Source of the DNA: Escherichia coli
GTDB taxonomy: Bacteria > Pseudomonadota > Gammaproteobacteria > Enterobacterales > Enterobacteriaceae
Strand: one strand, 5' to 3'
Length of the DNA: 64,000 nucleotides
Assembly: GCF_041248615.1 (NCBI RefSeq)
Contig: NZ_CP158426.1
Part shown: positions 2,536-20,706 of the stretch, in pieces
Layout: each line of letters opens with the position of its first letter
Position numbering within the stretch: position 1 is the first letter of the stretch
Program-made: the position numbers and the translations under genes
Notes under the pieces: generated by a model
What the model saw: the letters and a program-made list of their open reading frames with translations, nothing else
What the model was told of the DNA's origin: nothing
Database searches by the model: none

Positions 2536-2550
2536 TTAGTATAAAAAAGC
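2536..2550. other. attR core (lambda 15-bp common core, reverse orientation)
   Basis: Exact match to reverse complement of GCTTTTTTATACTAA, flanked by host sequence on the ybhB side and lambda P-arm sequence inside. Confidence 0.88.
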
Positions 2551-2737: not shown

Positions 2738-3227
2738 TCAACTCACTGGGTTAGTTGAATTTACAACCATGCTCAGTATCTCGATAAGCGCAGGGAGATG
2801 ATGCAGTGGTGGGCGGACTGGCTTGATGAAAGTGTGCTGTAATCCTCATATCCAACCTAAGAGATATGCACAATTTTGTGAATAAGATATTGAGAATTAG
2901 CAAAAGTTTTATTTTGCGTATCATCAATTCAGAATACAAAGTCACATGCTAATGTTCTGCATTGGTATCTTTTGCTTATCCATGTCTACATTATCGCCAA
3001 AATAATAGGTTTTGCCTATCAATTATTTGAATTACTTCCATGAAATTATAACGCACTTGTAATTTTTGATTATTTTTACCTCTCAAGTGTTTTGTTTCTT
3101 CTATCTCTTTGTATTTTTAGCGAAAGTATGCCATATTGCATTCTAATATAACGTGGCGTTGTTTCTGTTTAATGATTTAAATAGTTCAACATAATATTTG
3201 CTAACAAATTATATCCAAGCAAATCAT

Positions 3228-4373
3228 ATGATATTATCATTACAATATATTAGAGGAATAGCATCATTACTTGTTGTTTTATTCCACTTCAGATTCTTGC
3301 TAAATGAGCACTACTCTCAGAAAGATTTGGGTGACCTATTATTTGGGAATGGGCTGTCTGGAGTTGATATATTCTTCATATTAAGTGGATTTATCATCGT
3401 ATACTCAACAAGAAAGAAGGAAGTTAATGATACTTTCTCATTCTCAATTAGAAGAATATTTAGAATATACCCATTACTAATCACATGCTGTTGCATGTAT
3501 TACATAATAAACACTCAATTTCTAACCTATGCTACAGTTGAAAACTTTAGAACCTTACTTATTTCCATCATTCCATTAAATATAAACTGGAATGAAGGCG
3601 CTCCATTCTTTGCCTATAATCTTTTGTACCCGGCCTGGACGATAACATATGAAATTGGTTTCTATGTTTTTTTCGGGGTATCAATGTCTATTTCGCATAA
3701 ATACAGAACAATTATCTGTTCTGTTTTTATAATCATGGTGGTCTCATTTACACAATACTATGTAAATGGAAATATATCATTTTCAGGTGATGTTAGTGCA
3801 GGGTTATTTACAGATAACTGGTTATTAGGATATACAAATGTTATTACATCTCCAATGATGTATGAATTCGTTATTGGGATGTTTCTTTCTGAAATATTTA
3901 CAAACATCAACGAAAGCAAAAGTATTAAAAGGATACTTTCAAAGTATTCGCTTCAAATACTATGGATTTCATGTGGTATATCCATAATATTATTCATTAT
4001 CCAGCGACCTTATGGGCATGGATTGAATGGATTTGGGACTATGGCGATGATACTTATTGCATCATCATTAGTATATGAATACTGCAATATAACACCCAAA
4101 ATAAAAATATTTAATTTCCTTGGTGAAATATCATATTCTTTATATCTAATTCACGCCGTGATACTTGCTTTGTTCTTCTATTATAAGGCAGACCTTGCTG
4201 AAATTGGCATAACTGGTGGATTTTCTGTGTTTTTTTCCTTGGTTATTATCTCAATAACTGCATCATATCCAATATATATTCTCATTGAAAAGCCAATGAT
4301 AAATATAGGTAAACGTTTAATTGACAAGAGAAATAAGAGCATTAACAAAAAAGAAACCGAAATAACAGCGTGA
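3228..4373 (+). CDS. integral membrane acyltransferase, family 3 (putative O-antigen/polysaccharide O-acetyltransferase)
   Basis: Very hydrophobic multi-TM protein; N-terminal R/H motif YIRGIASLLVVLFH typical of acyltransferase family 3; ATG at 3228 chosen over the track's TTG at 3198; AT-rich codon usage. Confidence 0.7.
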   Translation: MILSLQYIRGIASLLVVLFHFRFLLNEHYSQKDLGDLLFGNGLSGVDIFFILSGFIIVYSTRKKEVNDTFSFSIRRIFRIYPLLITCCCMYYIINTQFLTYATVENFRTLLISIIPLNINWNEGAPFFAYNLLYPAWTITYEIGFYVFFGVSMSISHKYRTIICSVFIIMVVSFTQYYVNGNISFSGDVSAGLFTDNWLLGYTNVITSPMMYEFVIGMFLSEIFTNINESKSIKRILSKYSLQILWISCGISIILFIIQRPYGHGLNGFGTMAMILIASSLVYEYCNITPKIKIFNFLGEISYSLYLIHAVILALFFYYKADLAEIGITGGFSVFFSLVIISITASYPIYILIEKPMINIGKRLIDKRNKSINKKETEITA

Positions 4374-4410
4374 TAATGACAAAGTTAGTGCCGGGATACC
4401 CCGGCACTAT

Positions 4411-5748
4411 TTAATCTATTTCGTAAGTGACAGTGATTATCACTTCTGCATTATTACCCAAAACATTTTGATATATATTCATATTACCTGATAATGTAGT
4501 TGCTCCAGTAAGAGTTATATAACTACTATTTGCATCAACCCTTGGAAGTAAAGCGGTAACTGCTGTTGTTAAATTATTATAGTAGCCTGTACTTCCAACA
4601 TATGCAGCTTTATTGCTTGATACATATGGTAACCCTCCAATTCTGAAACCATCTCCTGACCCAATTAAAGTTATACCAAGGTGACATGTTGCCGTTATGA
4701 TATTGCCACTCCTGACATAATTTCCTTTCTGCTGATAATATGTGGCATTACCACCTACAGTCGGAATCCAAACTCCAGTTTCTATATCACCACATGACCA
4801 GTCTTCTGCTGTTGTTAGTTTTCCAGTAACAATAAATTTACTTCCACCACCAGAATTATAAGGAACAAAAATTGGATTTATTCTTGCATAAGTGTTACCG
4901 GTCTGCTCATTAAGATCATTTCTATCAATAAGAACTTGACCATTTTCGAAGTTTGAAATCTGGCAGTCTGTTACACTCCAGTCTCTTAACTTCACATCAG
5001 CATCCATGACACCAATAAGCTTACCAGCATTACCAATTTTTTCTTTATGCATATTTACATACACATTTCTTACCGTAACAGACTGAGGGAACAGATAATT
5101 AGCAGGATTAGTTTTATCACTTAAAACAGATATTACCCAAGGTCTGTATTGAGTACTTACTTCACAATAAAATCCATCAATAAGCGTTCCAGATGCCGCT
5201 GGCCCAAGTAGTATTCCACCTGTAGAGTGATGCGCACTACCTCCAATTACTCTCCCCTTAACGCAGTTAATATAGGCAAAACATCCTAAATCTTGATTGT
5301 CATAGGCTGACATAGCACAGTCTCTAACTGTTACTCGAGAATTTCCTCCGTCATAAGCTGAGCCATCAGTTTTCTTACCAACTATTGATATAAAGTTACC
5401 AATAGCAACTCGACTATAAAAAGTTTTTTTATAACACCCCTCAATTAAAATATCCCAGTTTTCAAACTGAGCATATATATCATAAATGCTGGCATTCCCA
5501 TAATCTATGAAATCACAATATCTTATTTTCGGCGTATAAACGGCACTTTTTATCTTTATACCACCTAATGCTCTCTCCCCACCTGTGAATCTAATGCCAG
5601 TAACGGTGTAATCGCCTTGATAGAAATTATCTGCGGTAGGATTATTTTCGTCAGAATCATCACCCAATATAATAGCAAATTCACTCCCTGAATAATTAAT
5701 TGTCGCCCCCTTATTTGAATATATAGTTACAGGTCTTATAAACTCCAA
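4411..5748 (-). CDS. beta-helix-like protein of unknown function (possible tailspike/depolymerase-like domain); lacks an ATG start, possibly frameshifted or truncated
   Basis: 445-codon ORF whose first codon is TTG; Gly/Asn/Thr/Val-rich repetitive sequence; in-frame upstream TGA; upstream out-of-frame ATG (5831) separated by an A7/T7 tract. Confidence 0.45.
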   Translation of the reverse strand: MEFIRPVTIYSNKGATINYSGSEFAIILGDDSDENNPTADNFYQGDYTVTGIRFTGGERALGGIKIKSAVYTPKIRYCDFIDYGNASIYDIYAQFENWDILIEGCYKKTFYSRVAIGNFISIVGKKTDGSAYDGGNSRVTVRDCAMSAYDNQDLGCFAYINCVKGRVIGGSAHHSTGGILLGPAASGTLIDGFYCEVSTQYRPWVISVLSDKTNPANYLFPQSVTVRNVYVNMHKEKIGNAGKLIGVMDADVKLRDWSVTDCQISNFENGQVLIDRNDLNEQTGNTYARINPIFVPYNSGGGSKFIVTGKLTTAEDWSCGDIETGVWIPTVGGNATYYQQKGNYVRSGNIITATCHLGITLIGSGDGFRIGGLPYVSSNKAAYVGSTGYYNNLTTAVTALLPRVDANSSYITLTGATTLSGNMNIYQNVLGNNAEVIITVTYEID

Positions 5749-6140
5749 AGAATTACTTATCAGATACTCTCCATAAGGAAAAAAATCTCAACTGGTGGTG
5801 AGTACTTTGGTCTGGAGTTTACGTAATTCATAATATTGATTACACCAACATCATAGATAATCGCCACCTTCTGGCGAGGAGCTCCTGATGCAATTAATCG
5901 CCAGGCCTACGCCCATTATTCATGGGTAAATTTTGGACGGAGCCCCCAATTCCATCCTCAATTCTCCCTCGCACTGAGGAGTAGTAAGTGCAATTATTTA
6001 AAAAATCGCAAACAGAATATTATCATTTATTCTTGCATTCTGTTAATTAAAACCACACATAAAAACGTTGATACTTGATAAGTAAGTAGAGTATTATTAA
6101 TGGTTTTAATAACGAACCTTTTAATCATGAGAAGCCTCAA

Positions 6141-7166
6141 ATGACTAGTACCAATAACATAACAAGAAAAAAAATGGATGGAGTAACAATCTTAAGATTT
6201 ATAGCTGCTTTTTATGTGTTTATTTTTCACATTAACATGAGAGTCCCCGTTAATTTTGGAGAGCTTATTAATAAAACCATTAGCAATGGCGTCATTGGCA
6301 TGAGTATTTTCTTCATGCTTTCTGGTTTTGTTTTGACTTATAATTACTATGGTTCCTTGTCAAACAATTACTTCAGGAAGCGAATAGCAAGAATATTTCC
6401 AGCCTATTTATTTTGTGGGCTTTTAACCCTCCCATTTTTGTTATCCAGCGATGCAAGCTTTTTAAAAATGATTGCAAGCATATTCTTGTTTGTTACTGGA
6501 ATGCAATCATGGATTTATCAGACCTTCGATTTTTGGAATTTTAGCGGTACCTGGTCAATATCAGTGGAATTGTTTTTTTATGCCCTGTTTCCATTTTTGA
6601 TAAAAAACATCAACAAAAACAATGTAATTTATGTTTTACTTTTTTCATATTTATCTTCAGCATTATTAATCCCATTATCTGATATAATTCAGGGACCTGT
6701 AGTTTGGTCCGTATATTACGCAACTCCAATATACAGGTTACCAGAATTTGTGGTGGGCGTCTGTATCGCAATACTTTTTTTAAATGGCTATCGTGTTAAC
6801 CATTATACATGGCTATTAAGCATTTTATTATTTCTGTATGCTACCACCCAGCAAAACAATAACTCCATGGGGGTGAACTATCTCACAATTCCTGCGATAT
6901 CAATTATGTTATTGCACCTGGCAAAAATCAACATCAAAAACAACATTGCAAACAGAGCGATCATTTACTTTGGAGATATAAGTTATTCGTTTTATTTGAT
7001 GCAATTACCTATATTATATTACCTGGATCATAATAAAAACTCATTTATTCTTAACTATGGTCTTTTTAGCTGGCTTGTACTTTTTGTTATTAATACTGCA
7101 ATGGCATCATTATCTTATCACTTTCTGGAGAAGAACGATAAAATCAGAAAAATAATTACATCCTGA
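6141..7166 (+). CDS. integral membrane acyltransferase, family 3 (second copy, divergent sequence)
   Basis: 341-aa hydrophobic protein with motif ILRFIAAFYVFIFH; AT-rich. Confidence 0.7.
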   Translation: MTSTNNITRKKMDGVTILRFIAAFYVFIFHINMRVPVNFGELINKTISNGVIGMSIFFMLSGFVLTYNYYGSLSNNYFRKRIARIFPAYLFCGLLTLPFLLSSDASFLKMIASIFLFVTGMQSWIYQTFDFWNFSGTWSISVELFFYALFPFLIKNINKNNVIYVLLFSYLSSALLIPLSDIIQGPVVWSVYYATPIYRLPEFVVGVCIAILFLNGYRVNHYTWLLSILLFLYATTQQNNNSMGVNYLTIPAISIMLLHLAKINIKNNIANRAIIYFGDISYSFYLMQLPILYYLDHNKNSFILNYGLFSWLVLFVINTAMASLSYHFLEKNDKIRKIITS

Positions 7167-7207: not shown

Positions 7208-7603
7208 TCAACGTATTATCTCTGGCCTTTCTGGCCAGGTTATTTCTGGAATTAAGGACAAATCCACTGACATTAAATTATTAACATATTCCTTCCATAA
7301 CAAAAGATTGTTCTTGTTATTTTCACTTATAATACCGAGTAACAAATCTGACTGCCAGTTCATAATTAAACCATTAGCACTATCCAGCAGACACTGTCTT
7401 TCATTCTCTGCCTCACGAAGTAATTCATCATGTGTTTTTGGCGGCTGCGTAGGTGACGAAAGCTTTCCCTTATCATAGAACCAACCAATTCTTACATTAT
7501 CGGATACAGGTATAACTAACGCATTAGTTGGTTGCCAGGCACTCTCACCATCCCATACCGCAATATTGGTAACAACACCATTTTCTATAACGGCATAGTT
7601 CAT
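7208..7603 (-). CDS. tail fiber assembly protein (Tfa-like chaperone)
   Basis: Protein MNYAVIENGVVTNIAVWDGE... resembles the Tfa family N-terminus; immediately downstream of the tail fiber gene with TGATG overlap. Confidence 0.7.
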   Translation of the reverse strand: MNYAVIENGVVTNIAVWDGESAWQPTNALVIPVSDNVRIGWFYDKGKLSSPTQPPKTHDELLREAENERQCLLDSANGLIMNWQSDLLLGIISENNKNNLLLWKEYVNNLMSVDLSLIPEITWPERPEIIR

Positions 7604-8712
7604 CACGCATACTCCCAAATGATTGCAATACCAGCCATTCCGCTACCTCCGGCACGCTGCTGCGTCGCTCCACCGTAGACACAGGCACCACCGCCTCCAC
7701 CACCATGGCCATTAGCATTAATACCTTCGCCTACAATGGCTTGTGACCCAGCCCCCGCACCAAGGATTGAATCGCCGCCAGGCCCCCCCATCGCCAGACT
7801 GCCGGAATACCGAACGCCTGGTGAGCTATAACCGCTTCCAGACCCGATAATATTTGCACCTGTAAATCCCGGCTCAGTATATGCTCCATACGGACCAACA
7901 ACCCCTGGAGCAGTTCCTTCAGCAAGAACATCCCCACCAAGGCCACCTTTGGCAATTATGGTATTGCCGAAAGAGGTTGTTCCCCCGGGAGCACCAACCG
8001 ACGCACTTGCACCAGTGCCACCATATCCGATTGTCACAGTAGTTACGGTTGGATTATCCACGCGAGCTTTAACATACTCCCCGGACATCCCCCCGCCACC
8101 ACAAGCAGCATTATTGGGATAACCGACCTGACAACCACCACCGGCCCCACCACCACCAACAATTTCAACAATAATAAATTTTGTGCCTTTTGTCGGAGTG
8201 TATGTACCTGAGCTTTTAAACACCTGACACTGTATAAGCCTCCCGGAGCCATCTCCCAAACCAAGGTATGCGAGAATGTCATCAATAGTATTTTTGCCGA
8301 TAATATCACGGCCTACCTTAGTGAGGTCGGTCTGCGCAGCCTTATCTGTGCCAGTGAAATACGGTAGCTTATTTGCACCTGTCGCCAGTCCGGCCAGAGC
8401 CGTCAACGTGGCATCAAGCGCCTGATAATCCTTACCGAATGCAGAAGACATTTTGGTAATGAATCCATTCAGGTCGCCATCATCCAATACATCCAGTCCG
8501 CTTTTGTTTGCTGTGTACTGTGCAAGTGCTGCAGCAATAAAGCTGGCCTGCCGAATAACCTTATTGACTTGCGCACTGGAGGCTTTCCCTGCTGTAAATC
8601 CGGATAAAAGCGCGGGCAACGCTTCCCATTCCTCCTGCGATATAACATTGGCATTTCGATCCGTTGCAAACGCTTTAAAGTCATTTTTCGCCATCAGAGT
8701 AATACTCCCCAT
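7603..8712 (-). CDS. tail fiber protein with glycine-rich C-terminal domain
   Basis: 369 aa; conserved fiber N-terminal region then GGxGG-rich repeats; follows baseplate genes. Confidence 0.7.
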   Translation of the reverse strand: MGSITLMAKNDFKAFATDRNANVISQEEWEALPALLSGFTAGKASSAQVNKVIRQASFIAAALAQYTANKSGLDVLDDGDLNGFITKMSSAFGKDYQALDATLTALAGLATGANKLPYFTGTDKAAQTDLTKVGRDIIGKNTIDDILAYLGLGDGSGRLIQCQVFKSSGTYTPTKGTKFIIVEIVGGGGAGGGCQVGYPNNAACGGGGMSGEYVKARVDNPTVTTVTIGYGGTGASASVGAPGGTTSFGNTIIAKGGLGGDVLAEGTAPGVVGPYGAYTEPGFTGANIIGSGSGYSSPGVRYSGSLAMGGPGGDSILGAGAGSQAIVGEGINANGHGGGGGGACVYGGATQQRAGGSGMAGIAIIWEYA

Positions 8713-9374
8713 GCTCCTACATCAAAACCACTGATGAATTCGTTATCCATATCAAAACCAAAAAATTTTGAGCCTTCCGATGGGGTTTCCACCGAAGGTG
8801 TTTCAATGCCACCCGCCCATACCCCGGCAGCTTTTACTGTGAGATACCCCTGTTTAATTGCCGCAATTAACTCACGCGATACATCTGAAATATCAGTATC
8901 AGGAAAGACCCAGACCGATATCGTCATGTCCTGGTTATCGACTATCTGCATTCGCAGTCCGGATCCTACTGTCGCCGCGTCAAGAATTGCTGGAAGCGAA
9001 TCATTCCGTCCGTCCCAGTTATTAATCGCAATCTTCGCTTTAAGGATGACACGATAAGTTTCATCGCTGAGGTACATGTATCCGGAATCAGGATCGTATG
9101 GCCCCTGCCATACACCCTGATCATATCCAAGCCCGTCGGTATCCCAGCTGAAATAGACACCTGAGATAGGCTGGCTGACAACACGGCTACGTCCGATCCA
9201 CAATCCAAGAATGTCAAGTTGCACACCAACCGCAGAGTCAATATCAAATGCAGTAATCAGCCCTCTGGTGGCAGCCGCAACATCAATAAGCGGCCGGGTC
9301 ATCAGATCAACATGTGCAAGAAATTTAGGTTTGGTGGCGTGGTAGTTCGTGATCAGTTCGGTGTATTTGCTCAT
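8694..9374 (-). CDS. baseplate/tail protein (gpI or Mu gp48-like)
   Basis: 226-aa ORF between the baseplate J-like gene and the tail fiber gene; position-based. Confidence 0.55.
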   Translation of the reverse strand: MSKYTELITNYHATKPKFLAHVDLMTRPLIDVAAATRGLITAFDIDSAVGVQLDILGLWIGRSRVVSQPISGVYFSWDTDGLGYDQGVWQGPYDPDSGYMYLSDETYRVILKAKIAINNWDGRNDSLPAILDAATVGSGLRMQIVDNQDMTISVWVFPDTDISDVSRELIAAIKQGYLTVKAAGVWAGGIETPSVETPSEGSKFFGFDMDNEFISGFDVGAWGVLL

Positions 9375-10570
9375 GACTCCACCGTTATAACGATATTTTC
9401 CGGTGTACAGGACGCAGATTCGTTGTATCTGATATCAATGTTTGATGACGACAAAGCCCCCGGGGATTTCCCAATCGTCAGTTCCTGAATATCGTAATAG
9501 CGTGCATTCCCGCCACTCACCACGCCAAGATTCGCCGGTGAGTAAATGCGACTTAAAAGGACCGAATCACCAATCATCAGACTATTGATATAGTCGGAAA
9601 TAGCCTGCTGGATCTGCTGCCCTATCTGTGAGGTATAACCCGTAAAAACTTTTAATTTAATCCGGGCATAAACAGGTACATCACTGGAACGCGAGAATTT
9701 GATTACATGGGGATTGCCGTATTTATCCGGAACCGTAACGGATGTTGTACCGTGAGTGGCTGTCCCCTGGCCTTTATTCCCTCTAATAGCCTGAGCAATA
9801 TCCGTCACATCACCGCCATCCACAATTACAGCAACAGAGTGTGGCGGTAACCCGTTACCGTCCTCCGAACCAGTATCGTTTTCATAGAGTTTGTGGCGGG
9901 TTACACCGGTAACATTAGAAACAGCACCATCCAGTGCTTCAAATGGGGTTATTGATGGCAACGCAACACTTTGCGACTGGCGGATACGTAACTCCGCATC
10001 AGTTTCTGCTGGAGTGCCTACAGTAGCTGCAGCAGGATTGGTTACCGAAACCCAGCCACGGGTTGGCGTATTAATTTCAGTGATAGTTCCAGCCAGCGCC
10101 GCCACTGCACCACTGACGGAACATTTTGCGGTCACCATCACTGTACCATCCACGCCGACCACCACTGAAGCAGGCAAACGCCATATCACATTATTACCAT
10201 CTTTCACGCTGCCATTAATGATGGTTGTTCCGGCAGTTCCTGTAAGAAGCAAATCAACCGTAGAATTCGTCGCGCCTTTACGTGAAATACCATTTATTTT
10301 CACGTTACTGGTCAGCGCAGCCCCATAGCCGGTTGCCGGTGAAAAACAGTTGTAGACAGTTATCGCCATATTATTGGCATCATGAATCGCCAGCGCCATC
10401 AGAGCCACCATCTGGCCGTCTTTGCTGTCCGGTTCGAGGTAGGCATCACTGCCATAAATCTGCTGAAAATAGCTAATCAGGGTGCTGAGTATCGTCTGAT
10501 AATCAGGCGCACTGATCCCCTCCGCGGTTACCTTTGCAGATAAACCGAGAGAATCAAGGTTCAGAGCCAT
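9371..10570 (-). CDS. baseplate J-like protein
   Basis: 399-aa ORF in conserved W-J-I order of contractile-tail baseplate clusters. Confidence 0.7.
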   Translation of the reverse strand: MALNLDSLGLSAKVTAEGISAPDYQTILSTLISYFQQIYGSDAYLEPDSKDGQMVALMALAIHDANNMAITVYNCFSPATGYGAALTSNVKINGISRKGATNSTVDLLLTGTAGTTIINGSVKDGNNVIWRLPASVVVGVDGTVMVTAKCSVSGAVAALAGTITEINTPTRGWVSVTNPAAATVGTPAETDAELRIRQSQSVALPSITPFEALDGAVSNVTGVTRHKLYENDTGSEDGNGLPPHSVAVIVDGGDVTDIAQAIRGNKGQGTATHGTTSVTVPDKYGNPHVIKFSRSSDVPVYARIKLKVFTGYTSQIGQQIQQAISDYINSLMIGDSVLLSRIYSPANLGVVSGGNARYYDIQELTIGKSPGALSSSNIDIRYNESASCTPENIVITVES

Positions 10571-10923
10571 TACGCCTCCGATGTAACAGTCGTTATTCCA
10601 TAAAGAGTGTCGATTTCAGCGGAAAACATGACACGTCGGGTCGTGGTATCCACCGTCGTATTGAAAGAGAGGATTGATTTAACGCCCTGCGTTTCGAGGA
10701 TGCGTTTTCTGATCGCCAGGTTGTAAGTTTCCGGTTTTTGCCTGCCCAGCACGGACTGGATCCACGGAGTCCCCTCGGTGGTGTCGAGAAACCATTGCCC
10801 ATACCACAATTCGAATCGCGTTTTTACCGCCTGCGCCACGGCCTCCGGTGAGTTAATCAGCCAGGTGTCATCACCGCTGCCAAAGGTGTAATCGCCATCG
10901 GCGTCTTCACGTCTGTATCGCAT
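10570..10923 (-). CDS. baseplate wedge protein (GPW/gp25-like)
   Basis: 117 aa, tightly coupled between spike and J-like genes. Confidence 0.6.
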   Translation of the reverse strand: MRYRREDADGDYTFGSGDDTWLINSPEAVAQAVKTRFELWYGQWFLDTTEGTPWIQSVLGRQKPETYNLAIRKRILETQGVKSILSFNTTVDTTTRRVMFSAEIDTLYGITTVTSEA

Positions 10924-11675
10924 CAGTTTACTCCGTCGGTATTGCTTCCACCGCGCTGAACACCACCATGAGTGTGCGTATCATCGATTGGCTTGCCGTT
11001 AGCCTTCACGCTACCCAAAAACTCAACAGCACCAGTGATTTTTGAAGCCACACCAGAAACAACAGACCCCACCATGCCACCCATCCAGGTTAACAGGCCA
11101 TGAATGGTTACTTTCTCAGAAAAATCAGCCAGAGGAGCAACCACATCAAGACCACCCGGAGCGACAATTTTAATTTTCCTGGTGTCAGGATTAAGCTCAA
11201 AATAGGTGCTGCCGTCGTCACTACGCAACTGTGTGGCACTGGTATTAATACCGCTAATCTTCCTCGCCTGCGACTGGGGACCGACAATACAAAACGCATC
11301 CGATAAATCATGCATTCTGTCATCGACCGGCTCCTGTATCCCGCCACTCTGCCACCAGAAATCAATACAACGATCGGCAAAAACGACAAGACACTCATCC
11401 CCGGCTTTTACCGGAAAAGTCAACGTACAGCCTCCGCCGCGCGGGAATACCACTGGTACATCCACCAGCAATGGGTAATTTTGGGTAATGCGGTTGCCGT
11501 CATTATCCTTTTCAACCGAACGGATAGCAGGCTGCACAACTGCCGTCACCGCATCAGGATCGAATGACTGAATAATGCCAGGCAAGGCGACACGGATCTG
11601 GTTCTTTGTTGTTTCCCGTTCAGATTTGAATGTTTCGGCAAGGTCGCCGCTGCGGGTCTGGTCAGATACTGCCAT
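10923..11675 (-). CDS. baseplate spike/assembly protein V-like
   Basis: 250 aa, Gly-rich C-terminus, precedes the W-like gene. Confidence 0.6.
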   Translation of the reverse strand: MAVSDQTRSGDLAETFKSERETTKNQIRVALPGIIQSFDPDAVTAVVQPAIRSVEKDNDGNRITQNYPLLVDVPVVFPRGGGCTLTFPVKAGDECLVVFADRCIDFWWQSGGIQEPVDDRMHDLSDAFCIVGPQSQARKISGINTSATQLRSDDGSTYFELNPDTRKIKIVAPGGLDVVAPLADFSEKVTIHGLLTWMGGMVGSVVSGVASKITGAVEFLGSVKANGKPIDDTHTHGGVQRGGSNTDGVN

Positions 11676-11694
11676 TTAGTAGGCTCCAGAAAGC

Positions 11695-11720
11695 AAAAAA
11701 CCCGCCATCCGGCGGGTTTT
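11695..11720 (-). terminator. rho-independent terminator downstream of the lipoprotein gene
   Basis: Stem CCCGCC/GGCGGG with loop ATCC, flanked by A6 on one side and T4 on the other (T6 on the reverse strand). Confidence 0.6.
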
Positions 11721-11740
11721 ATGTGACTAATTTGATCTTT

Positions 11741-12466
11741 TCAGTTTATAAGCCCCATCTTACCGGCGCTTCGATAGTTAATTACATCGCCTGAAGAGCC
11801 GCAAGGCACAGCTACAGTCGACATTTTGACAAATCCTTTACCGCCCTGCTTTTGGCATAAAGTGGCATGCATTTTTGCTAAACGCGCAGCATGACCAAAA
11901 TCAATTTTGGTTCCGTAAGTTGAATCTCGTAGAGCTGCTTTTTTTGCAATTCCAGTAATATTTTTGTCTTTAATTACAGATGCAAACAAACTCAAATCAT
12001 TTCCAATTTGATTGAAGCAAGTACGATTAATATCAACATCGGCATACGCTGAAATGCGTTTGCAATCTGAGATCTGAGAAAGCACAGATGTGTTAACCAG
12101 TTGCAAATTTAATTTGTAGTCACCGACATAGGTATAAACTTTGTTAGGGTCCGTGGTTCCCGGATAACGAGTTACGAATGGAATGCTGTTGTACGCATCT
12201 CGCAAAGATTCTGCACCCTTACTTTTAAGCTCGTTCCCAACACCAGCAACGATAACCTCTGGATGTGAAACTTCAAATTGAGACTTTTCTTCGCGCTGTA
12301 TTTGAAGCCTGCTTTTCTGGCTCTCCTCAACTTGCTTATCGTACGCTTGTTTTTCTTCATTTTTTTGGGATAGCCATTTTTCCTGCGCTTTAGCACCATT
12401 AGGATCCCAACTACATGAAGTTAAAAAAAGAGAAAATACGATTGTGGTTATCGCAAGCCTGCTCAC
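11741..12466 (-). CDS. predicted lipoprotein of unknown function, inserted within the baseplate gene cluster
   Basis: Signal peptide with lipobox MSRLAITTIVFSLFLTSC; E/K/Q-rich coiled-coil-like segment then Cys-containing C-terminal domain; AT-rich relative to neighbours; own terminator. Confidence 0.6.
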   Translation of the reverse strand: MSRLAITTIVFSLFLTSCSWDPNGAKAQEKWLSQKNEEKQAYDKQVEESQKSRLQIQREEKSQFEVSHPEVIVAGVGNELKSKGAESLRDAYNSIPFVTRYPGTTDPNKVYTYVGDYKLNLQLVNTSVLSQISDCKRISAYADVDINRTCFNQIGNDLSLFASVIKDKNITGIAKKAALRDSTYGTKIDFGHAARLAKMHATLCQKQGGKGFVKMSTVAVPCGSSGDVINYRSAGKMGLIN

Positions 12467-12468
12467 TA

Positions 12469-13533
12469 TTATGCACCTCGATTCATCGCTGACTGGCTAG
12501 GAATATCACTAGCACCTCGAGCAAAGCACATCATATCCATGTACCACGCCTGGCCCCTTGTGTCGCCAGTGTACATAATCCCGCGCACAATATAAACGCC
12601 ATCCGTTGCGATGCTGGCAGGTTGTGCTGTGGTGCCGCTGAGTGTGATATTTCCGTCCGTGTTCTGGTCGGTGATCTGCCCACCAGCCATCGCAATATCA
12701 TTGTTCGACAGCGCGGTGCGGTACACGGAAGCCTGATCCAGCTGAATAAGCCCGTTAACCCGGATGTTCGGATTAATAAGCGCGCGGACGTTTACGCCGT
12801 TACCGATAGTCTGCTGCGGCATGCCAATAAGCCCGGTAGCGCTGTTGAGCACAATCGCTTCATGAACATATTCGTTATTCGCCACCATCTGGCGCTGACC
12901 GTCCACGAATTGCCATGTTGCGCCACATTGCCCGGCTACGTTATCCATTAGATGCCGCGTCATGCCAAAGAGCACCCGCCCCCGGGGGAATACAGTAGCA
13001 GGCATTTCAGGCGTCAGGCCTTCGGTCGCACCTTTGGCTTCGAAGTCTTTCATCAGCGCACGGTTCACATCAGCGACCGTGTAACCGGCAGCCAGCGTCT
13101 GTGAGGTTATACTGGTGGCAAAAGCCAGATCAGTATCTGCTGCCTGAATCAGGACGTAGGAATCAACCGGACTGTCTTTTCCTGTGACCGAGTAGCGAAT
13201 TTCACCGCTGAAAATCAGTCCGTAGTTGCGGCCATCTCTCTGGCCCACGTCCGCCGCGTCAACTTCCCGCACGGTCCCTACGTCGCTTGCTGACACCTCC
13301 GGCGCGATACCGTCGTAACCGGCAATCAGACGCACTTTCGAAAATTCCTGCCCGGTGATTCGGTTCACAGTATCTGCCGAGAGGTTATAAATTTTGATAG
13401 TCCCTACCCGGGACGCGCTGCTGATGTTGAACCAGTCGATCGTAAAGGTGACTTTGAAATCACTTAGCTCAATTCCCTGACCGTTCCCGTCCACAAGCTG
13501 CAGCTCGAAATGTCTCATCCAGTTCTGTGACAT
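12469..13533 (-). CDS. tail/baseplate structural protein (hub-like by position)
   Basis: 354-aa ORF between tape-measure-proximal genes and the spike gene. Confidence 0.45.
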   Translation of the reverse strand: MSQNWMRHFELQLVDGNGQGIELSDFKVTFTIDWFNISSASRVGTIKIYNLSADTVNRITGQEFSKVRLIAGYDGIAPEVSASDVGTVREVDAADVGQRDGRNYGLIFSGEIRYSVTGKDSPVDSYVLIQAADTDLAFATSITSQTLAAGYTVADVNRALMKDFEAKGATEGLTPEMPATVFPRGRVLFGMTRHLMDNVAGQCGATWQFVDGQRQMVANNEYVHEAIVLNSATGLIGMPQQTIGNGVNVRALINPNIRVNGLIQLDQASVYRTALSNNDIAMAGGQITDQNTDGNITLSGTTAQPASIATDGVYIVRGIMYTGDTRGQAWYMDMMCFARGASDIPSQSAMNRGA

Positions 13534-13535
13534 GC

Positions 13536-13838
13536 TTACTCCGTTGATACCAGTAAATGACTGAGGCCGCCCAGATCAGTTTTCGTGGGATAATCCTGTG
13601 TGTTGTCATCGCAGACCACCACCAGCTTAAAACCAAGTCCCATACAGGCGTACTGCGCCAGCAGGTCAGCACCAGTGACGAGAGGAATACCGGAGATTAC
13701 CGGCTCCCCTCTGTCGTTCTGCAGGTCCATAATCCAGTACAGATCGCGCCATATGATGCTAATCCGCCAGGTAACACCACCCAGGACGATGCTGAACTGC
13801 TGGTTGTCCGCTGTCAGCGGAATTTCCTGAATTGTCAT
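13536..13838 (-). CDS. tail protein, small
   Basis: 100-aa ORF translationally coupled to neighbours in the tail cluster. Confidence 0.4.
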   Translation of the reverse strand: MTIQEIPLTADNQQFSIVLGGVTWRISIIWRDLYWIMDLQNDRGEPVISGIPLVTGADLLAQYACMGLGFKLVVVCDDNTQDYPTKTDLGGLSHLLVSTE

Positions 13839-14425
13839 TAGCCGCCCCCCAGTAATGACGCCACGTTACCCGTGATGCTTTTCAGCAGTGAAGTATCTGG
13901 AGGCTTTGTGGTTTTGTTGCCGCTATTCTGTACCGCCGACGTGCTGGCCCCTTCCTTCATGTTGGTTTTATCCGCGACGGTAATCTGCTGTGTCCGGGAG
14001 ATAAGGACCTCCCTCAGGGTGAGGACGGCGGACAGGACGTTTTCGGTTGTCTTGTCCGTCGTCACTTCCAGCGCCCGGATCAACATGTTGCTGTACAGTC
14101 GTTTACCGGTTACCACATCGAAGGGGATACGGCTTTCCTGCAGATCCAGTAGCTCCTGATACGTCTGCTGAGGACTCAGGCCGAGCAGGCTGGTAGCCGT
14201 CAGATTACTGGCAAAATCCAGCAATGCGCCGCCACCGGCGAAACCAACCTCCATCACCACTTCTGACGGTTTTTTATAGGCATGATCAGCGACAGCGGCC
14301 CCAACCTCTACCGGATGCTCTGTTATTTCAAGCATATCTGTATGCTTCTCTGAAATAACAACACTGGGAACAATCATTCCTATTTTTCTGCTCTGCTGAT
14401 GAAAAAGTGTAGAGAGAATATCCAC
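13838..14425 (-). CDS. tail protein of unknown function
   Basis: 195-aa ORF immediately after the tape measure gene, coupled stop/start. Confidence 0.4.
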   Translation of the reverse strand: MDILSTLFHQQSRKIGMIVPSVVISEKHTDMLEITEHPVEVGAAVADHAYKKPSEVVMEVGFAGGGALLDFASNLTATSLLGLSPQQTYQELLDLQESRIPFDVVTGKRLYSNMLIRALEVTTDKTTENVLSAVLTLREVLISRTQQITVADKTNMKEGASTSAVQNSGNKTTKPPDTSLLKSITGNVASLLGGG

Positions 14426-16413
14426 TAACCCACCCTCACCTGATTACTTCGCATGACCTGAGCATTTGCAGACTGTTGCCGACGTGCAACCTCATTACCG
14501 ACAGCGTGCGGATCTCCGCCACCGTAAATGTGGTAGGTATTTTGCTGGTTAACCTCTGTCACTTTGCCACTAATTCCCGCCACGGCAGCCTTATTAATCA
14601 GCTCTCGAGAATAGATATTTCTTCCATTCTCATGCTGGATAATGCTGCTCATCAATGCTGACATGGTTTGCGGATCGCTCATATTCAGGGCAGCCCGGGG
14701 ATCCACTCCCAGTCGTTGCGATACAGCCCTGATATACGCAGTTGTGTTGTTATTATCAGACGCAGGTGCCCAGGTAGAGATAATTTTCTCCACACTGTTT
14801 ATTCCCCGTCCGGCGTACAGCATTAACTGACGAGCAAGAGCCCGTAATCCATCAAAGGCAGTTTCAAATCTGGCAAATCGCCCGCCCGGGCGTTCAAGAG
14901 AAGCCCCTGCCTGACCAGCAAAATTAAGGTTTCCCGGATTGTTATTCCGTTCTCCTCGTTTCGTAGCCTGTGCATGTTGTTCCGGCTCATCATCACCAAA
15001 CCAGCCGCGTACCGTCCGGCCCACACTGCGGGGATCAAATCCCCAGTGCTCTTTAATCCAGTCGGCAGTACTGTTAGCGCTGTCTGTAACCATCGGCATC
15101 GCTGACGGATTTTCGCTGCCCTGATTAAGTATCTGTTTGCCGATGCTGACGGCATCAGCCCAGCGGCCATCTTTGATAGCGTTGAGCAGGTCGGCGATCA
15201 TGTTCAGCATTTTGCTGAATTCGCCCATCTGGTCGATGAAGTTGCTGAAATCCCACTTCAGGGACCATGATTTGGGGTCAATATTGAGCAGTTTCGCCAG
15301 CGCTTTCACCAGGTCGTTAACGGTCGTTTTAAGGTCACGAACCATCTTCAGCGCGGCATCAACCTCCGGTTTCCACTTGCCCCAGTCAATCAGGCTGTCG
15401 CCGCCTTCCTTCCAGGTCTGATAGTCCTCCCACAGGAGGGCAATCCCCGCCGCCAGCGCGGTAATGAGGCCAATCGGCGACATCCAGAACGTACTGTTCA
15501 GAATGCGCAGCGCAATCGTCAGTGCGCCAAACAGCGAGATCAACTCCCGCGTTTGCTTATCCAGCGATTGCCACCAGGTGATGAGGCCTGATGTCCCCTC
15601 AATCAGTCTGAAGAACAGCCGCCCGATAATATCCCCGAGCGCCAGAATGCCTTTTATGGCTTTCGTCAGGGTCTGCTCGATACGCGGGAAGTTGTCCAGG
15701 ATATGGCGGCGCAGTGTGTCCAGCGAACCCGCAAGCCCACCCGCAAGATTAGAGCCGATTTTGTCACGGGCCATGCCTGCCATCGCGCCAAACTCACGCA
15801 GGGAGGTCATAAATTTGTTGGAGCTTCTGGCCGCCTCGTCAGCATTGAAGCCGATAGCTTTCGCCATTGCGCTGTACTGCCCGGAGAAGCCACCCACACC
15901 GCGACGCATAGCCAACAGGGTATTTTCGTCAATGCCCAGCATCTGCGCATACTGGTTAGCACGGTAATACGGCATGTCGCTGAGCTTCTGGCCTACCCCT
16001 GTAAAAATAGCGGCCATGTCACGCATGTTACCGCTGGCATCCCGTGTCTGTACCCCCAGACGATTCAGAAATCCCTCCGCCCCGGGATTATTACGAATAA
16101 ACCGGGAGAGGTTTTCCAGAGAAGATCGCGCAGCGTCCACGCTGCCGCCAACCTGCGAAACCGCATAGCCAATAGACTGAATTCCCTGGACTGTCGCGCC
16201 GGTGCGCTGTGACGCCCAGTAAAGATTATCCAGGCCGGAGGCGATCTTAGCCGTGAAGGCCACCACGGACAGCGCCGCTCCTTCGACGGCCAGCCCCATT
16301 TTGATGACATTTGCAGTTGTACCGGCGAGGACAGAACCGAATTTTTTCGCTCCTGCATCATCCACACTGAAGCCAAGCGAGACAAGGAAATCTTTAATAG
16401 TCTCGGCGTTCAT
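14425..16413 (-). CDS. tail tape measure protein
   Basis: Long Ala/Gly/Leu-rich protein following the chaperone gene; start MNAETIKDF with RBS GGAGAGAGG. Confidence 0.7.
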   Translation of the reverse strand: MNAETIKDFLVSLGFSVDDAGAKKFGSVLAGTTANVIKMGLAVEGAALSVVAFTAKIASGLDNLYWASQRTGATVQGIQSIGYAVSQVGGSVDAARSSLENLSRFIRNNPGAEGFLNRLGVQTRDASGNMRDMAAIFTGVGQKLSDMPYYRANQYAQMLGIDENTLLAMRRGVGGFSGQYSAMAKAIGFNADEAARSSNKFMTSLREFGAMAGMARDKIGSNLAGGLAGSLDTLRRHILDNFPRIEQTLTKAIKGILALGDIIGRLFFRLIEGTSGLITWWQSLDKQTRELISLFGALTIALRILNSTFWMSPIGLITALAAGIALLWEDYQTWKEGGDSLIDWGKWKPEVDAALKMVRDLKTTVNDLVKALAKLLNIDPKSWSLKWDFSNFIDQMGEFSKMLNMIADLLNAIKDGRWADAVSIGKQILNQGSENPSAMPMVTDSANSTADWIKEHWGFDPRSVGRTVRGWFGDDEPEQHAQATKRGERNNNPGNLNFAGQAGASLERPGGRFARFETAFDGLRALARQLMLYAGRGINSVEKIISTWAPASDNNNTTAYIRAVSQRLGVDPRAALNMSDPQTMSALMSSIIQHENGRNIYSRELINKAAVAGISGKVTEVNQQNTYHIYGGGDPHAVGNEVARRQQSANAQVMRSNQVRVG

Positions 16414-17043
16414 TATCCTCTCTCCATTTCTCAATGCGCCGCTGGTTATCCGCTTTTACCGCCAGATGGTCATTCAAGAGAGCAATGTCGTACAAATCGA
16501 CAGAGCCATCTTTAAGTGCTGTATAAGGAATTAACCCGGCGTCAACCGGATTGAGAAGGTAGGACAGCCCGTCCGGCAGGCTGTTAAACGTCAGCCCTGT
16601 TGCAGGCTCTGCGTCGTGCTGGTAAGGGGTGTAGGCAAAAAATTTCCCAGCGAATCGGCGACCACCCGCGCCACCAGCTGCAGCATGACCAGCAGGTCAA
16701 TATCATCAAACATCAGTTCGCCCTGGGTAAATACCGGCACCCATCCGTCCATATGACGCCGCGATACCACCGCAAGACAGGGATGAATAATCGCATCGGT
16801 GTCATCTTCGGTCAGGGAAGACAGTTCCTCAGCGATACGCGGGAGCATGGTTTCAAACACCGGTTTTAACTGCTCGAATTTCACGGTGTCGATTTTGCCG
16901 TCAGCAGGCAAACGGGAGCGAATGCTCCCGAAATCTGACATCATTCCCGCCAGTACCGGCAGAAGTTTGCGGGTCACTTTCAGCTGGTCAAAAACGCTGA
17001 GTTTTGCCACGCGATATTTCACGCCTTTGATTTCGAATTCCAT
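16394..17043 (-). CDS. tail assembly chaperone, predicted -1 frameshift fusion product (long form)
   Basis: From the slippery site (about 16639..16645) the -1 frame stays open for ~80 codons to a TAA at 16394..16396 overlapping the tape measure start. Confidence 0.5.
16591..17043 (-). CDS. tail assembly chaperone (short form)
   Basis: 150 aa, between tube and tape measure genes; contains slippery heptamer A_AAT_TTT near its 3' end. Confidence 0.55.
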   Translation of the reverse strand: MEFEIKGVKYRVAKLSVFDQLKVTRKLLPVLAGMMSDFGSIRSRLPADGKIDTVKFEQLKPVFETMLPRIAEELSSLTEDDTDAIIHPCLAVVSRRHMDGWVPVFTQGELMFDDIDLLVMLQLVARVVADSLGNFLPTPLTSTTQSLQQG

Positions 17044-17046
17044 GTA

Positions 17047-17487
17047 TTAAAACTCCCCGAGAACCTGGTCAATCTTGCCGCAGTCAAACACCCACGGCAT
17101 CGTATTACCGGTTTTAGCGTTGGCATTATCCGGTTGTTTCTGGAACGCAACACTGCGTGCCGTGATGATGTCGCCGCTGACCTTGTTGCGGATCACGATA
17201 ACGTTATTCCCCCATGTGGCAGAAGACTGGCTCTGTGCGTTATACGCCAGCGACAATTTTTTATTTGTCGGTGATGTCTTCAGAAGGTTAACGGTAATCG
17301 TCCCGCTTTTATCTGCATGGAGGCTGTGCATCACTTCACCATCAGCACCGATGGTCATGGTGTTTTTAGGACCGCCCATCGCAACCACAATCCCCTCTTC
17401 AGAACTTGCAGAACCGTACCCGAGGTCAATCGAACCGGTCGGGCCGGTCAGCGTCGCAGTGACATCCATAAAAGAATAGGTAGACAT
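17047..17487 (-). CDS. tail tube protein
   Basis: 146 aa directly downstream of the sheath gene. Confidence 0.6.
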   Translation of the reverse strand: MSTYSFMDVTATLTGPTGSIDLGYGSASSEEGIVVAMGGPKNTMTIGADGEVMHSLHADKSGTITVNLLKTSPTNKKLSLAYNAQSQSSATWGNNVIVIRNKVSGDIITARSVAFQKQPDNANAKTGNTMPWVFDCGKIDQVLGEF

Positions 17488-17497
17488 TCACTTCCCC

Positions 17498-18643
17498 TTA
17501 GCGAACAACGTTAATCTGTACGTCAGCGTAATGAACCGCGCCTGCAAGTTTTATTGCAGCCTGAATCACCGGAGCCTTACGGGCTTCACGTTCTGATTGT
17601 GCCTGTTCATCCAGCGGCTGGGCGTATACGTAATAACCTTTGGGCAGTGTGTCACCTGATGACAACTGACCAAGGTCGCCCCCGTTCCATACGCCCGGAG
17701 CAATCAGTCCATTCTGAACGGCCTGATCCAGTGATTTTTCAACATTTGATAACAGTCGGGTAATACCAGCTTCAGTCTGGGGAACTTTCGTGGTGCTGGT
17801 ATAAAGCAGGTTATAGAGGTTGGTCTGCACATAATTCTGTAACCAGTCCAGGCCGTGGCGTTCATCAAAGAAATCGCCGTTAGCCATCACTCCCTGCTGG
17901 AGGATAGCCGTATCATTCTGGTAGTACACGAATACATTGCAGTTTTTTGCATCAAGTGCCGATGCCTGGCTGACTGTCAGTGTTTCATACCCGACACCCG
18001 GCTCCTGCTTAAACTTGAGCGTAATCGCGGTATTACTGCCATTGAAATTAACCGTGAATACCCGGCCAAATGCAGATAACGCAGCGTATTTATTACCCGA
18101 TGAATACTGAATAAAACTGCGTGAATATCCGGCGGTTTTCAGTTTTGATGCCAAATCATCGCTGGATGCAGTCTGCAGGCATTTATCATCGCTTGTCGTA
18201 ATCGCCAGAATACGGCTTACAGAAGAGGATTCGATCGCCGCAGCCACTTTCAGCCAGTCTGCATCCGGAATATCTTCATCGTCTGCAATCCCCAGCCCAT
18301 ACCATGAAGTATAATCGAGCATGGCATTCACAGCCTGCTCCAGCGTCTCAGGCGTGGCCTGTTCGCTGTCACCCTTCGTTTTCACCCAACGACCAACAAA
18401 AACCTCCTGAGGTTTCGGTGATTGTGAGAAAAACACCTGCGCAGCCTTATATTCTGGTGATTCCACGCCAAAATCTTTTCCAATATCTTCCGCGGCAGAA
18501 TAACGGCGAATGCGCTCACTTACCGGAATGATTGTGGACGGGCCGAGAATGAGTAATGCACCAAAATTTCGCCCTGATGCTGCACGCGGCGACATGATCA
18601 CATCAACATTAACAACGTTTGATACAGGCAAGCCCTGTGCCAT
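17498..18643 (-). CDS. contractile tail sheath protein
   Basis: 381 aa, position and size typical of short sheath proteins; precedes the tube gene. Confidence 0.65.
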
Positions 18644-18646
18644 AGC

Positions 18647-19210
18647 TTAATCTCCGAAAAAGATGACTGGTGCTTCCACCAGCGATTTAATACCGTACTC
18701 GCGCACAACCTTCCGGCGCAGGCGCACCGTCATATCGTAGCGGCGGACCCATTGCTGATTAATAAGTTCAGGGAAGGGGGTCAGACCTGTGTAATCGCCA
18801 AGAGACAGCCCCAGCGCATTCAGTGCTGCATTGTTCTGCGGTACAGATATACCGTCACGAAACCGGGACGCATACACCATCCCCGCCGGACCATAAAACG
18901 AAGCCATACACTCAATCGTTTCATGCCGCCAGAGCTTAGAGCCATCATCGGTCTGTCTGGTGAATGCCGGACTGTCATCACCTGACCATCCGATAACCCC
19001 AAGCGCACACCAGTTCGTTTCAGCCGGTAGCAGTGGCGGCTGCTCTTTCTGCCAGCGCGGGCGAACCATCCCGGCAGACAGACCGGAAACGTTACGCATC
19101 CACTGGCTTAACAGCCTGTCGAGCGCTTCGTCATAATCCGGATCGCCACTGGTTGGTATCAGCCATCCGCGCTCTGTACTGGTGTTATTGCTCAACCGGA
19201 ATTCCCCCAT
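18647..19210 (-). CDS. tail/neck protein of unknown function
   Basis: ORF between head-completion genes and sheath; start re-assigned to internal ATG (MGEFRL...). Confidence 0.4.
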   Translation of the reverse strand: MGEFRLSNNTSTERGWLIPTSGDPDYDEALDRLLSQWMRNVSGLSAGMVRPRWQKEQPPLLPAETNWCALGVIGWSGDDSPAFTRQTDDGSKLWRHETIECMASFYGPAGMVYASRFRDGISVPQNNAALNALGLSLGDYTGLTPFPELINQQWVRRYDMTVRLRRKVVREYGIKSLVEAPVIFFGD

Positions 19211-19574
19211 CAAACGGCAGCAACTCACAATGCGCCTGAACGAATCCGGCACCATAAGCTGTATACGGGTCGACGAAGGTCACACGATAATCACGGCCCT
19301 GATACGTCACGATATCGGCATCACGGCCAGTCTGTCCCTGCGTCAGTCGCTCAGTCGTCACAATCAGAATTGCACCGCTGATTACCTGCCCTGCCTGCAT
19401 ACGGCGGTTTTCCAGAGAGCGATCAACAGTTACGACTCCGGCAAACTGCTTTTTAACTTCGCTGTCGCTGCCGATCCCGTCCTCATCCACCGTTTGCACT
19501 CGGCGTGTTACCCACAAATTGAAGTCGCAAAAATCGGGGTCAAAAAGCACATCTGTTACATCAAGAGTCGGCAT
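19185..19574 (-). CDS. head-tail joining protein (hypothetical)
   Basis: 129-aa ORF in the head-to-tail cluster. Confidence 0.4.
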   Translation of the reverse strand: MPTLDVTDVLFDPDFCDFNLWVTRRVQTVDEDGIGSDSEVKKQFAGVVTVDRSLENRRMQAGQVISGAILIVTTERLTQGQTGRDADIVTYQGRDYRVTFVDPYTAYGAGFVQAHCELLPFDGGIPVEQ

Positions 19575-20115
19575 CTTTATCCCTCACTACATGGGTAATA
19601 GCTCTGCGATATTGCCCGGTGTCAATTAATGGTTTCGCCAGATCGGTTCCGGGAGATTCGCCAGCAGCACGCCGGGCAAGTTCCAGTGTTGCCCCCTTGC
19701 GCCCCCGACGAGCCCGGGCTTCAACAGTACTGTCAGCAAGCGGCGTAAAGCCGGTAATGGTCATGTAACGCCTGACACCATTAACGGCCAGCGTTCCGGC
19801 ACGGTTGAGTGCGCCTTCTGCTCCCGCAGCATTACCATCCAGTGCAGCCTGCGCCGCGGCTTTGAGCTGCGGCACCGTCTGCTCTTCTGCCGATTTAACG
19901 CCGGGGGCCAGGTGAGGTCGTGGCGGGATGTTCTGCTCTGGTGAGCCGTATTCGTTGAGGTAACCGATGCCCGCATTACCAAACGGAACATCATCCCGCT
20001 CGCTGTCTTCCGAAGGGATGCCGACCAGCACATCTTTTTTGGTTAACGACCTGAGCGCATCCAGAATGGCCTTAGCGTTATCCACCCTCGTTGTTACACC
20101 GCTTTTGAAACTCAT
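19561..20115 (-). CDS. head-tail joining protein (hypothetical)
   Basis: 184-aa ORF overlapping neighbours by a few codons. Confidence 0.4.
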
Positions 20116-20519
20116 AGCTGGCGACCGCCTGCACCGAACATCGTGATCAACTGATAAAATTCAGCGCCATATCGGGTGTTATTCCAGAAACCTGCATCAG
20201 GATTCAGCGTCGCGCTGGTGTCATAACTGACGCTTACCTTATCCACGGACTTTGAGGACTGAACACCATTGGTTGAACCGCCCGAACCACCAGCCAGCAT
20301 CGCCCGGCTGTCTGCCGCCCAGAGCGTCATGTAGTGCGCAACGAACAACCCGGCAAAGTGAGGAAACAACTTTTTGCCGGTGACGTTTTCGCTCAGCAGT
20401 TCATCGGCCAGATTCAGACGAAACTGGATTTGCGCTTCGGGATATTTGGCAGGGTCAGCAAACTGCGGGAAGTCGCGGCGAAAATCACTTACCGCTGGCA
20501 GACTTTGATTCTTTGGCAT
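20112..20519 (-). CDS. head-tail connector/adaptor (hypothetical)
   Basis: 135-aa ORF downstream of the major capsid gene. Confidence 0.4.
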
Positions 20520-20706
20520 TTTTTACCTCGTTACGCGCGTCTGTGGCTTTGCCAACGGATACTTCCGCGTGCGCACGAGTGAACCAGTGCGTGGCAACGT
20601 CTTCCTCCACAGCATGACGGCCTTTAACAAACTCGCGCCGTGAACCGTCGGGAAGCGTGAGCACAAACGGGGTATGTACGTGTATTACTGCATTATTTTT
20701 TGCCAT
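20485..20706 (-). CDS. small hypothetical protein
   Basis: 73-aa ORF between capsid and connector genes; start uncertain. Confidence 0.3.

Follow-up and report, generated by a model that had tools for sequence, protein, structure and literature searches.

In P22-like podoviruses (P22 gp9; Shigella phage Sf6 gene 14-oac-int), the tailspike gene is followed by a convergent acyltransferase gene and int. A functional tailspike of this type has a head-binding domain, a complete beta-helix with an N-terminal cap, and a single reading frame with its own start codon and ribosome-binding site. N-terminally shortened tailspikes, such as P22 TSP-deltaN, fold and remain enzymatically active. Switches of the Pin/Gin/Cin type rely on an intact invertase catalytic domain and inverted crossover sites; contingency loci, on a tract whose length varies independently of phylogeny and which gives a complete protein in the ON state; and programmed frameshift sites, on two frames and a slippery site that are conserved in functional homologues. 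The N4-like Escherichia phage St11Ph5 (Gamaleyavirus) was isolated on an O5-type host (St11Ph5 papers), and the activity of its tailspike gp63.1, that of a lyase, is a prediction only (PMC6393563).

Here we analyse a beta-helix gene of Escherichia coli that has no ATG start codon and lies one frame away from an upstream ATG. The preliminary description of this gene, located within the 64,000-nt stretch of DNA analysed here (the window), left open whether it was a pseudogene or truncated tailspike remnant, a sequencing error at a homopolymer, a phase-variable switch or a programmed frameshift. An intact homologue and a mapped breakpoint now document the truncation, in line with the first of these options: positions 4411..5854 very probably represent a 5'-truncated, secondarily frameshifted tailspike pseudogene of the P22/Sf6 podovirus type, lying in a lambdoid prophage at att-lambda, at the att-proximal end. 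We searched the literature for an account of the remnant in REL606 or BL21 and found nothing specific, and the Hf4s preprint and a paper on tailspike modularity contained nothing specific on it.

Results

Reading frames at the locus

The minus-strand sequence and the ORF list both agree with the preliminary description on a 445-codon ORF whose first codon is TTG (5748..5746), and the sequence bears out the reported run of seven T residues (T7) at 5785..5779, A7 on the plus strand (Table 1). The in-frame TGA upstream of TTG 5748, previously placed at a distance of 16 codons, lies 14 codons away (5790..5788), with the 13 sense codons DFFPYGEYLISNS in between. ATG 5831 had been correctly recognized as the first codon of a short ORF (MNYVNSRPKYSPPVEIFFLMESI), but the stop of this ORF had been assigned to 5763..5765, where ATC (5765..5763) is the last sense codon; the stop is TGA 5762..5760. 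One extra T in the T7 run fuses the short ORF to the 445-codon ORF, as had been predicted, and the fused allele occurs naturally in strains Br_167 and Br_112 and in an intact gene of strain 2018-05-5CC.

PGAP lists the 445-aa frame as a CDS, and its product carries the RefSeq label 'hypothetical protein' (WP_029399677.1, WP_000394418.1). At least 1000 contigs carry this protein sequence, those of BL21 and REL606 among them. The ORF finder reports the 445-codon ORF from TTG because this codon is the first ATG, GTG or TTG past the stop created by the frameshift, and the PGAP call results from the longest-ORF convention only. Relative to every other copy examined, the remnant in the window has four substitutions of its own (5761, 5486..5487 and 5282), which amount to two amino-acid changes and one synonymous change, the latter converting the stop of the short ORF from TAA to TGA.

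Table 1. Features of the tailspike locus and of the surrounding prophage end (window coordinates).
Feature	Position	Strand	Description	Basis
Tailspike remnant, open part	4411..5748	-	Codons 205-649: most of the beta-helix and the C-terminal beta-sandwich	Comparison with intact homologue; fold model
Tailspike remnant, upstream part	5749..5854	-	Codons 169-204; in the other frame above the T tract; contains the Met177 codon	DNA and protein alignments
T7 homopolymer	5779..5785	-	Ancestral T8; 1-nt frame-breaking deletion	Allele alignment
Microhomology junction	5841..5854	-	Invertase remnant joined to tailspike	Four-way alignment (window, K-12 pinE, strain 8178 remnant, intact tailspike); BLAST end points
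Pin/Cin-type serine invertase remnant	5842..5955	-		pinE DNA identity; PinE translation; PGAP pseudogene calls
Hairpin, 10-bp, G+C-rich	4386..4409	.	Between the convergent tailspike remnant and acyltransferase gene; resembles a bidirectional terminator	
O-acetyltransferase gene, intact	3228..4373	+	381 aa; same gene follows the intact tailspike in 2018-05-5CC	phrog_3333, E=1.5e-71
IntS-type integrase 3' end	2757..2842	+	~28 codons; other end of captured fragment	Homology to 2018-05-5CC ends inside intS
Lambda att core, GCTTTTTTATACTAA	2536..2550	-	Prophage end; second copy at 44885..44899	

The 445-codon ORF is the 3' part of a tailspike gene

An intact homologue of 649 aa was found as the tailspike of a P22-like prophage in E. 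coli 2018-05-5CC, which contains genes for DNA-ejection proteins, Arc, HNH, the tailspike, a convergent acyltransferase and intS, followed by tRNA-Arg. The 445-aa ORF product is 99% identical to this protein. By BLAST, positions 5971-9070 of the 2018-05-5CC locus (L007) aligned with window 5854..2757 as a single block of 3,100 nt at 98.6% identity, comprising tailspike codons 169-649, the entire acyltransferase gene and the terminal 86 nt of intS. In the 649-aa protein, TTG 5748 corresponds to the internal residue Leu205, and ATG 5831 to the internal residue Met177. The earlier reading of ATG 5831 as the start of an ORF had missed that this is an internal Met codon and that the gene is truncated on its 5' side at 5854.

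The domain structure of the intact homologue shows what was removed. Pfam placed Head_binding (PF09008) at residues 4-114 and the pectate-lyase-like family PF12708 at residues 154-249, and homology to the window starts only at codon 169. The N-terminal region matched the Sf6 and P22 tailspike structures in a sequence search of the PDB. An AlphaFold model of the intact homologue, built from 23 homologues, was confident from residue 152 on and was matched by Foldseek to the tailspikes of Sf6, Dettilon, HK620, P22 and CBA120; together with the PF12708 match, this supports the beta-helix label of the preliminary description. In the model the beta-helix begins at about residue 154, with a capping helix at residues 170-181, and since TTG 5748 is codon 205, the TTG ORF lacks both the cap and the first beta-helix strands. 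Judged as a functional P22-like tailspike, the window copy has no head-binding domain, its beta-helix is incomplete (junction at codon 169, open frame from codon 205), and its frame is interrupted by a 1-nt deletion, with the native start absent. By descent it is a tailspike, and its receptor-binding part is homologous to bona fide tailspikes.

A tblastn search against phages aligned the 445-aa ORF to St11Ph5 gp63.1 (635 aa) from residue ~192 to 633 at 56% identity. When the missing T was restored and the window translation extended on its 5' side, it aligned continuously to gp63.1 residues 156-633 at 55% identity, with YVNSRPKYSPPVEIFFPYGEYLISNSLEFIRPV in the window opposite WVNSRAKYSAPISVIFPAGHYKYTTGINFTRPV in St11Ph5. 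In this alignment, tailspike homology passes through the TTG and the TGA, over the T tract and into the other frame. The 445-aa ORF was also 82% identical to cluster P0002, annotated as 'phage tailspike protein'. Among the 27 homologues found in a search of 5.8 billion proteins, the only ones shorter than 505 aa were the 445-aa truncated cluster and a single partial sequence; the rest had N-terminal anchor regions or PF12708. The 90% cluster of the 445-aa protein also holds fragments in a more advanced state of decay, of 112-228 aa, including ones of 121 and 213 aa in Shigella flexneri. A PHROGs scan of the 445-aa ORF alone found no family, and its family link comes from the intact homologue and BLAST only.

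The tailspike fragment is joined to a degraded invertase gene

On the 5' side of the tailspike fragment, window 5842..5952 matched pinE, the invertase gene of e14, over its 3' part, with 86-88% DNA identity in hundreds of K-12-like genomes. The translation of the remnant, ...WRLIASGAPRQKVAIIYDVGV, corresponds to PinE residues ~150 to 172. In all, the remnant spans approximately codons 135-172 of 184 (~38 codons of the C-terminal helix-turn-helix part), the catalytic domain is absent, and two in-frame stops lie just upstream of the WRLIASGAPRQKVAIIYDVGV part. Invertase and tailspike overlap in a 14-nt microhomology, ATGATGTTGGTGTA (window 5854..5841), read as Y-D-V-G-V in the invertase and as D-D-V-G-V in the tailspike. 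The two are fused in frame, on an invertase side that was already dead. In the alignment, the switch inside ATGATGTTGGTGTA bears the signature of microhomology-mediated illegitimate recombination.

Strains 8178 and T309.Ta3 carry related prophages at other sites, which share the tail fibre-tfa-acyltransferase-invertase remnant series up to window 5841/5842. These prophages have no tailspike block, and past 5841/5842 they continue into the invertase's own 3' end and then the prophage boundary. The same invertase remnant terminates related prophages elsewhere in the chromosome, beside pphA and beside tRNA-Pro. In a related prophage of strain B-JRPT-4119 (L006, 4938..6866), a 510-aa glycoside-hydrolase-family-55 protein comes directly after an stfP N-terminal 'pseudogene' and ahead of the same invertase remnant; this arrangement is another beta-helix-type receptor-binding module grafted behind a fibre N-terminus.

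With a Pin-like fragment just upstream, the 445-codon ORF was also considered as the silent cassette of an invertible tail-fibre switch. This candidate was rejected: the ORF is on the far side of the invertase remnant and is oriented like the tail fibre gene, the invertase catalytic domain is missing, and a search of the window for crossover sites with the AAACCNNGGTTT core gave 3 one-mismatch hits against 2.6 expected, that is, no gix/pix-like site above chance. Neither the intact catalytic domain nor the inverted crossover sites of a Pin/Gin/Cin switch were thus found.

The captured block lies at the end of a lambdoid prophage

The att core GCTTTTTTATACTAA had two exact matches, against 0.01 expected, and the sequence adjoining the copy at 2536..2550 is presumably the lambda attP P-arm. 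Between the two cores lies a lambdoid prophage of ~42 kb, flanked by ybhB-bioA and ybhC, whose int/xis are of the lambda type, whose early region is lambdoid and whose tail genes are of the myovirus type. At its att-proximal end, past the genes for the tail fibre and its assembly, is the tailspike remnant. At the other end of the captured block, PGAP calls the intS end a pseudogene (2759..2842). The acyltransferase gene within the block is intact in the window, Br_167 and 2018-05-5CC, with a dN/dS of 0.16, and it probably represents the selected lysogenic-conversion cargo, with the tailspike stub as a passenger.

Several further observations were made in this prophage. The gene at 6141..7166 (+) is a second O-acetyltransferase-like gene (phrog_3333, E=2e-40). 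It sits between the tail-fibre-assembly gene and the invertase remnant, the normal place of an invertible alternative fibre cassette, and brings the prophage to two putative LPS/O-antigen acyltransferases. For the tail fibre at 7603..8712 (-), PGAP calls a 'pseudogene' (8425..8694) and, separately, a 'glycine-rich domain protein' (7603..8451); the sequence is one unbroken 369-aa ORF with an ATG start, and the split is probably an artefact that arose in annotating a chimeric fibre. REL606 lacks a block of ~16.7 kb corresponding to window 8122..24784 (comparison with L002), with most head and tail morphogenesis genes, and the prophage of the window looks like the full form of the att-lambda prophage that is defective in E. 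coli B. Genes for tRNA-Thr and tRNA-Asn lie 5' of the lysis cassette (region list 29842..29997, 30568..31124 and 33109..33388), and the same list includes a Ser/Thr phosphatase gene and a ren gene that PGAP calls frameshifted.

Translation signals and selection argue against a domesticated gene

One alternative is that the 445-aa ORF has been domesticated as a genuine gene, with translation from TTG 5748 or through coupling, and yields a free beta-helix enzyme such as a virion-free O-antigen depolymerase. The PGAP call would fit such a gene, as would a promoter-like site upstream of the remnant (6046..6019) and the 445-codon frame, which has stayed open in the window, REL606 and Br_167. The PGAP call, however, reflects only the convention noted above, and because these copies diverge by no more than 0.3%, an open frame is what would be expected of a young pseudogene. 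Further, the proposed start is an internal Leu codon with essentially no Shine-Dalgarno sequence: anti-Shine-Dalgarno pairing 5' of TTG 5748 was -1.0 kcal/mol, weaker than for 98% of the 51 annotated genes in the window (median -6.5), and the value for ATG 5831 was -2.8 kcal/mol. The missing N-terminal cap in the model and the existence of further truncated copies, as in S. flexneri, also argue against a domesticated gene.

The pattern of substitutions was compared between and within the two groups of copies. Intact and truncated copies differed by 18-19 synonymous and 3-6 non-synonymous changes (dN/dS 0.05-0.09), a predominance of synonymous differences that arises because both descend from working phage genes. 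Within the truncated lineage the ratio was ~3 non-synonymous to 1 synonymous, near the neutral expectation; with only ~4 substitutions, this ratio is only suggestive, and it counts against domestication. Collectively, these data make a domesticated gene very improbable. Given a translation start somewhere, a soluble product of the truncated frame is conceivable by analogy with shortened tailspikes, and we give residual expression of a soluble beta-helix a slight chance.

The T7 allele is a derived deletion

The T tract was surveyed with an 80-nt probe against complete E. coli genomes, 50 of which matched. The match was 80 nt long in 47 (T7) and 81 nt long in three, the T8 genomes being 2018-05-5CC (intact gene) and the Brazilian strains Br_167 and Br_112, which carry the same att-lambda locus as the window. 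T7 was therefore present in 47 of the 49 genomes with the att-lambda locus, namely the window, REL606 and 45 others. These assemblies included numerous B derivatives that had been sequenced independently, as well as unrelated isolates of human, poultry, swan, seawater and milk origin. The stretch in the window is 100% identical to that of E. coli NRZ14408 (NZ_LT599825.1) and 99.7% identical to those of the E. coli B strains REL606 and BL21.

Polarity was read from an alignment of the window, REL606, Br_167 and Br_112 with the intact gene as the outgroup. Comparison with the homologous locus, a check proposed in the preliminary description, found T8, a single frame and an internal TTG in the intact prophage gene. 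Since both this outgroup and the Br_167 and Br_112 copies carry T8, T8 is ancestral. A derived A-to-G substitution at 5203 is common to the window and REL606, is absent from the T8 strains and co-segregates with T7. One inherited deletion therefore explains the distribution of alleles, and the aligned sequences indicate that T7 arose by a single 1-nt loss from T8 rather than by switching.

Two readings in which the tract acts as a switch were weighed against this result. In the broader one, the truncated beta-helix is a domesticated, virion-independent polysaccharide-binding or -degrading protein whose expression is toggled by T7/T8 slippage, between strains or at low frequency within clones, and which contributes, together with the O-acetyltransferase next to it, to surface remodelling or superinfection exclusion; we regard this as highly improbable. 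In the other, which is more doubtful again, the tract is simply a slipped-strand switch, with T7 as the OFF state and T8 as the ON state, giving a product of 485 aa from GTG 5867 or of ~473 aa from ATG 5831. Strains do differ in tract length at this one chromosomal locus, yet T7 travels with the derived SNP, a single deletion suffices, and 47 of the 49 genomes with the locus have T7 despite their diverse sources. Tract length is thus not independent of phylogeny, the T8 strains being ancestral both at the tract and at 5203. Nor does the ON state give a complete protein. The ORF that PGAP annotates in Br_167 and Br_112, 485 aa from a GTG equivalent to window 5867, still lacks tailspike codons 1-168 and begins inside the invertase pseudogene; whether started there or at the internal Met, the product would have neither the head-binding domain for attachment to the virion nor the first beta-helix strands. 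A run of 7-8 A/T nucleotides is also short relative to known contingency tracts.

Programmed ribosomal frameshifting on the T7 run, joining the ATG 5831 ORF to the long ORF, merits almost no credence: a U-rich slippery run does lie exactly where the two frames overlap, but a +1/-2 shift would be needed into a frame that the ancestral T8 gene reads unshifted, the two-frame layout is conserved in no homologue (the intact gene and that of St11Ph5 are single-frame here), and the upstream ORF is internal tailspike sequence with a weak Shine-Dalgarno, preceded by the dead invertase fragment. Homopolymers are error-prone on some sequencing platforms, but an assembly or sequencing error with a true tract of T8 is ruled out by T7 in 47 complete assemblies, independent REL606 and BL21 derivatives and unrelated field isolates among them, and T8 would still leave the gene incomplete.

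Discussion

The alignments fix the breakpoints of the captured block and the direction of change from T8 to T7, and they show that the TTG and ATG codons are internal. On this basis we propose that the resident prophage acquired, by illegitimate recombination over the 14-nt microhomology, a 3.1-kb block from a P22-like phage that comprises the 3' part of the tailspike gene, the O-acetyltransferase gene and the 3' end of intS. Tailspike codon 169 would thereby have been connected to the 3' end of a Pin/Cin-type invertase gene that had already degraded. The 168 codons removed would have included the native start and encoded the head-binding domain, linker and first beta-helix strand; the ribosome-binding site would have gone with them. 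In what we take to be a later step, one T was lost from the T8 run, 20 codons downstream of the junction, splitting what remained of the frame. The remnant probably gives no functional protein, and it was presumably the neighbouring intact O-acetyltransferase that kept the block in the population.

The locus is a case of ordinary prophage mosaicism and decay and not a regulatory switch, and the remnant has no bearing on recoding or phase-variation biology. For annotation, the 445-aa 'hypothetical protein' should read as a 5'-truncated, frameshifted tailspike pseudogene. The locus also offers a worked example of a receptor-binding module moving among P22-like, N4-like and lambdoid phage genomes, and of a 14-nt microhomology welding two unrelated gene fragments in frame.

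Comparison with known systems places each part of the locus. The order of tailspike, convergent acyltransferase and int in P22-like podoviruses is the same in the intact relative in 2018-05-5CC, whose tailspike resembles those of P22 and Sf6 in its head-binding domain and those of Sf6, HK620 and P22 in its beta-helix fold. In contrast, the window copy has lost codons 1-168, is fused to an invertase fragment and is frameshifted, and it resides in a lambdoid prophage with myovirus-type tail genes, which has no use for a P22-type head-binding tailspike.

The second likeness is to gp63.1 of St11Ph5, at 55-56% identity over the entire receptor-binding part (residues 156-633). Unlike the window copy, gp63.1 is read in one intact frame, and its N-terminal anchor, of ~155 aa, is a different one. 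The likeness is an instance of one receptor-binding module exchanged between unrelated phage types.

The third is to the Pin/Cin/Gin invertases (e14 pinE, P1 cin, Mu gin). The DNA 5' of the junction retains 86-88% identity to the 3' part of pinE and, as in e14, the invertase remnant is found a short way downstream of the tail fibre and tfa genes. Unlike these systems, the window keeps only the ~38 codons of the helix-turn-helix region, with stops, and has neither a catalytic domain nor a crossover site above chance; and unlike the silent cassette of an invertible segment, the tailspike ORF lies beyond the invertase and is oriented as the tail fibre gene.
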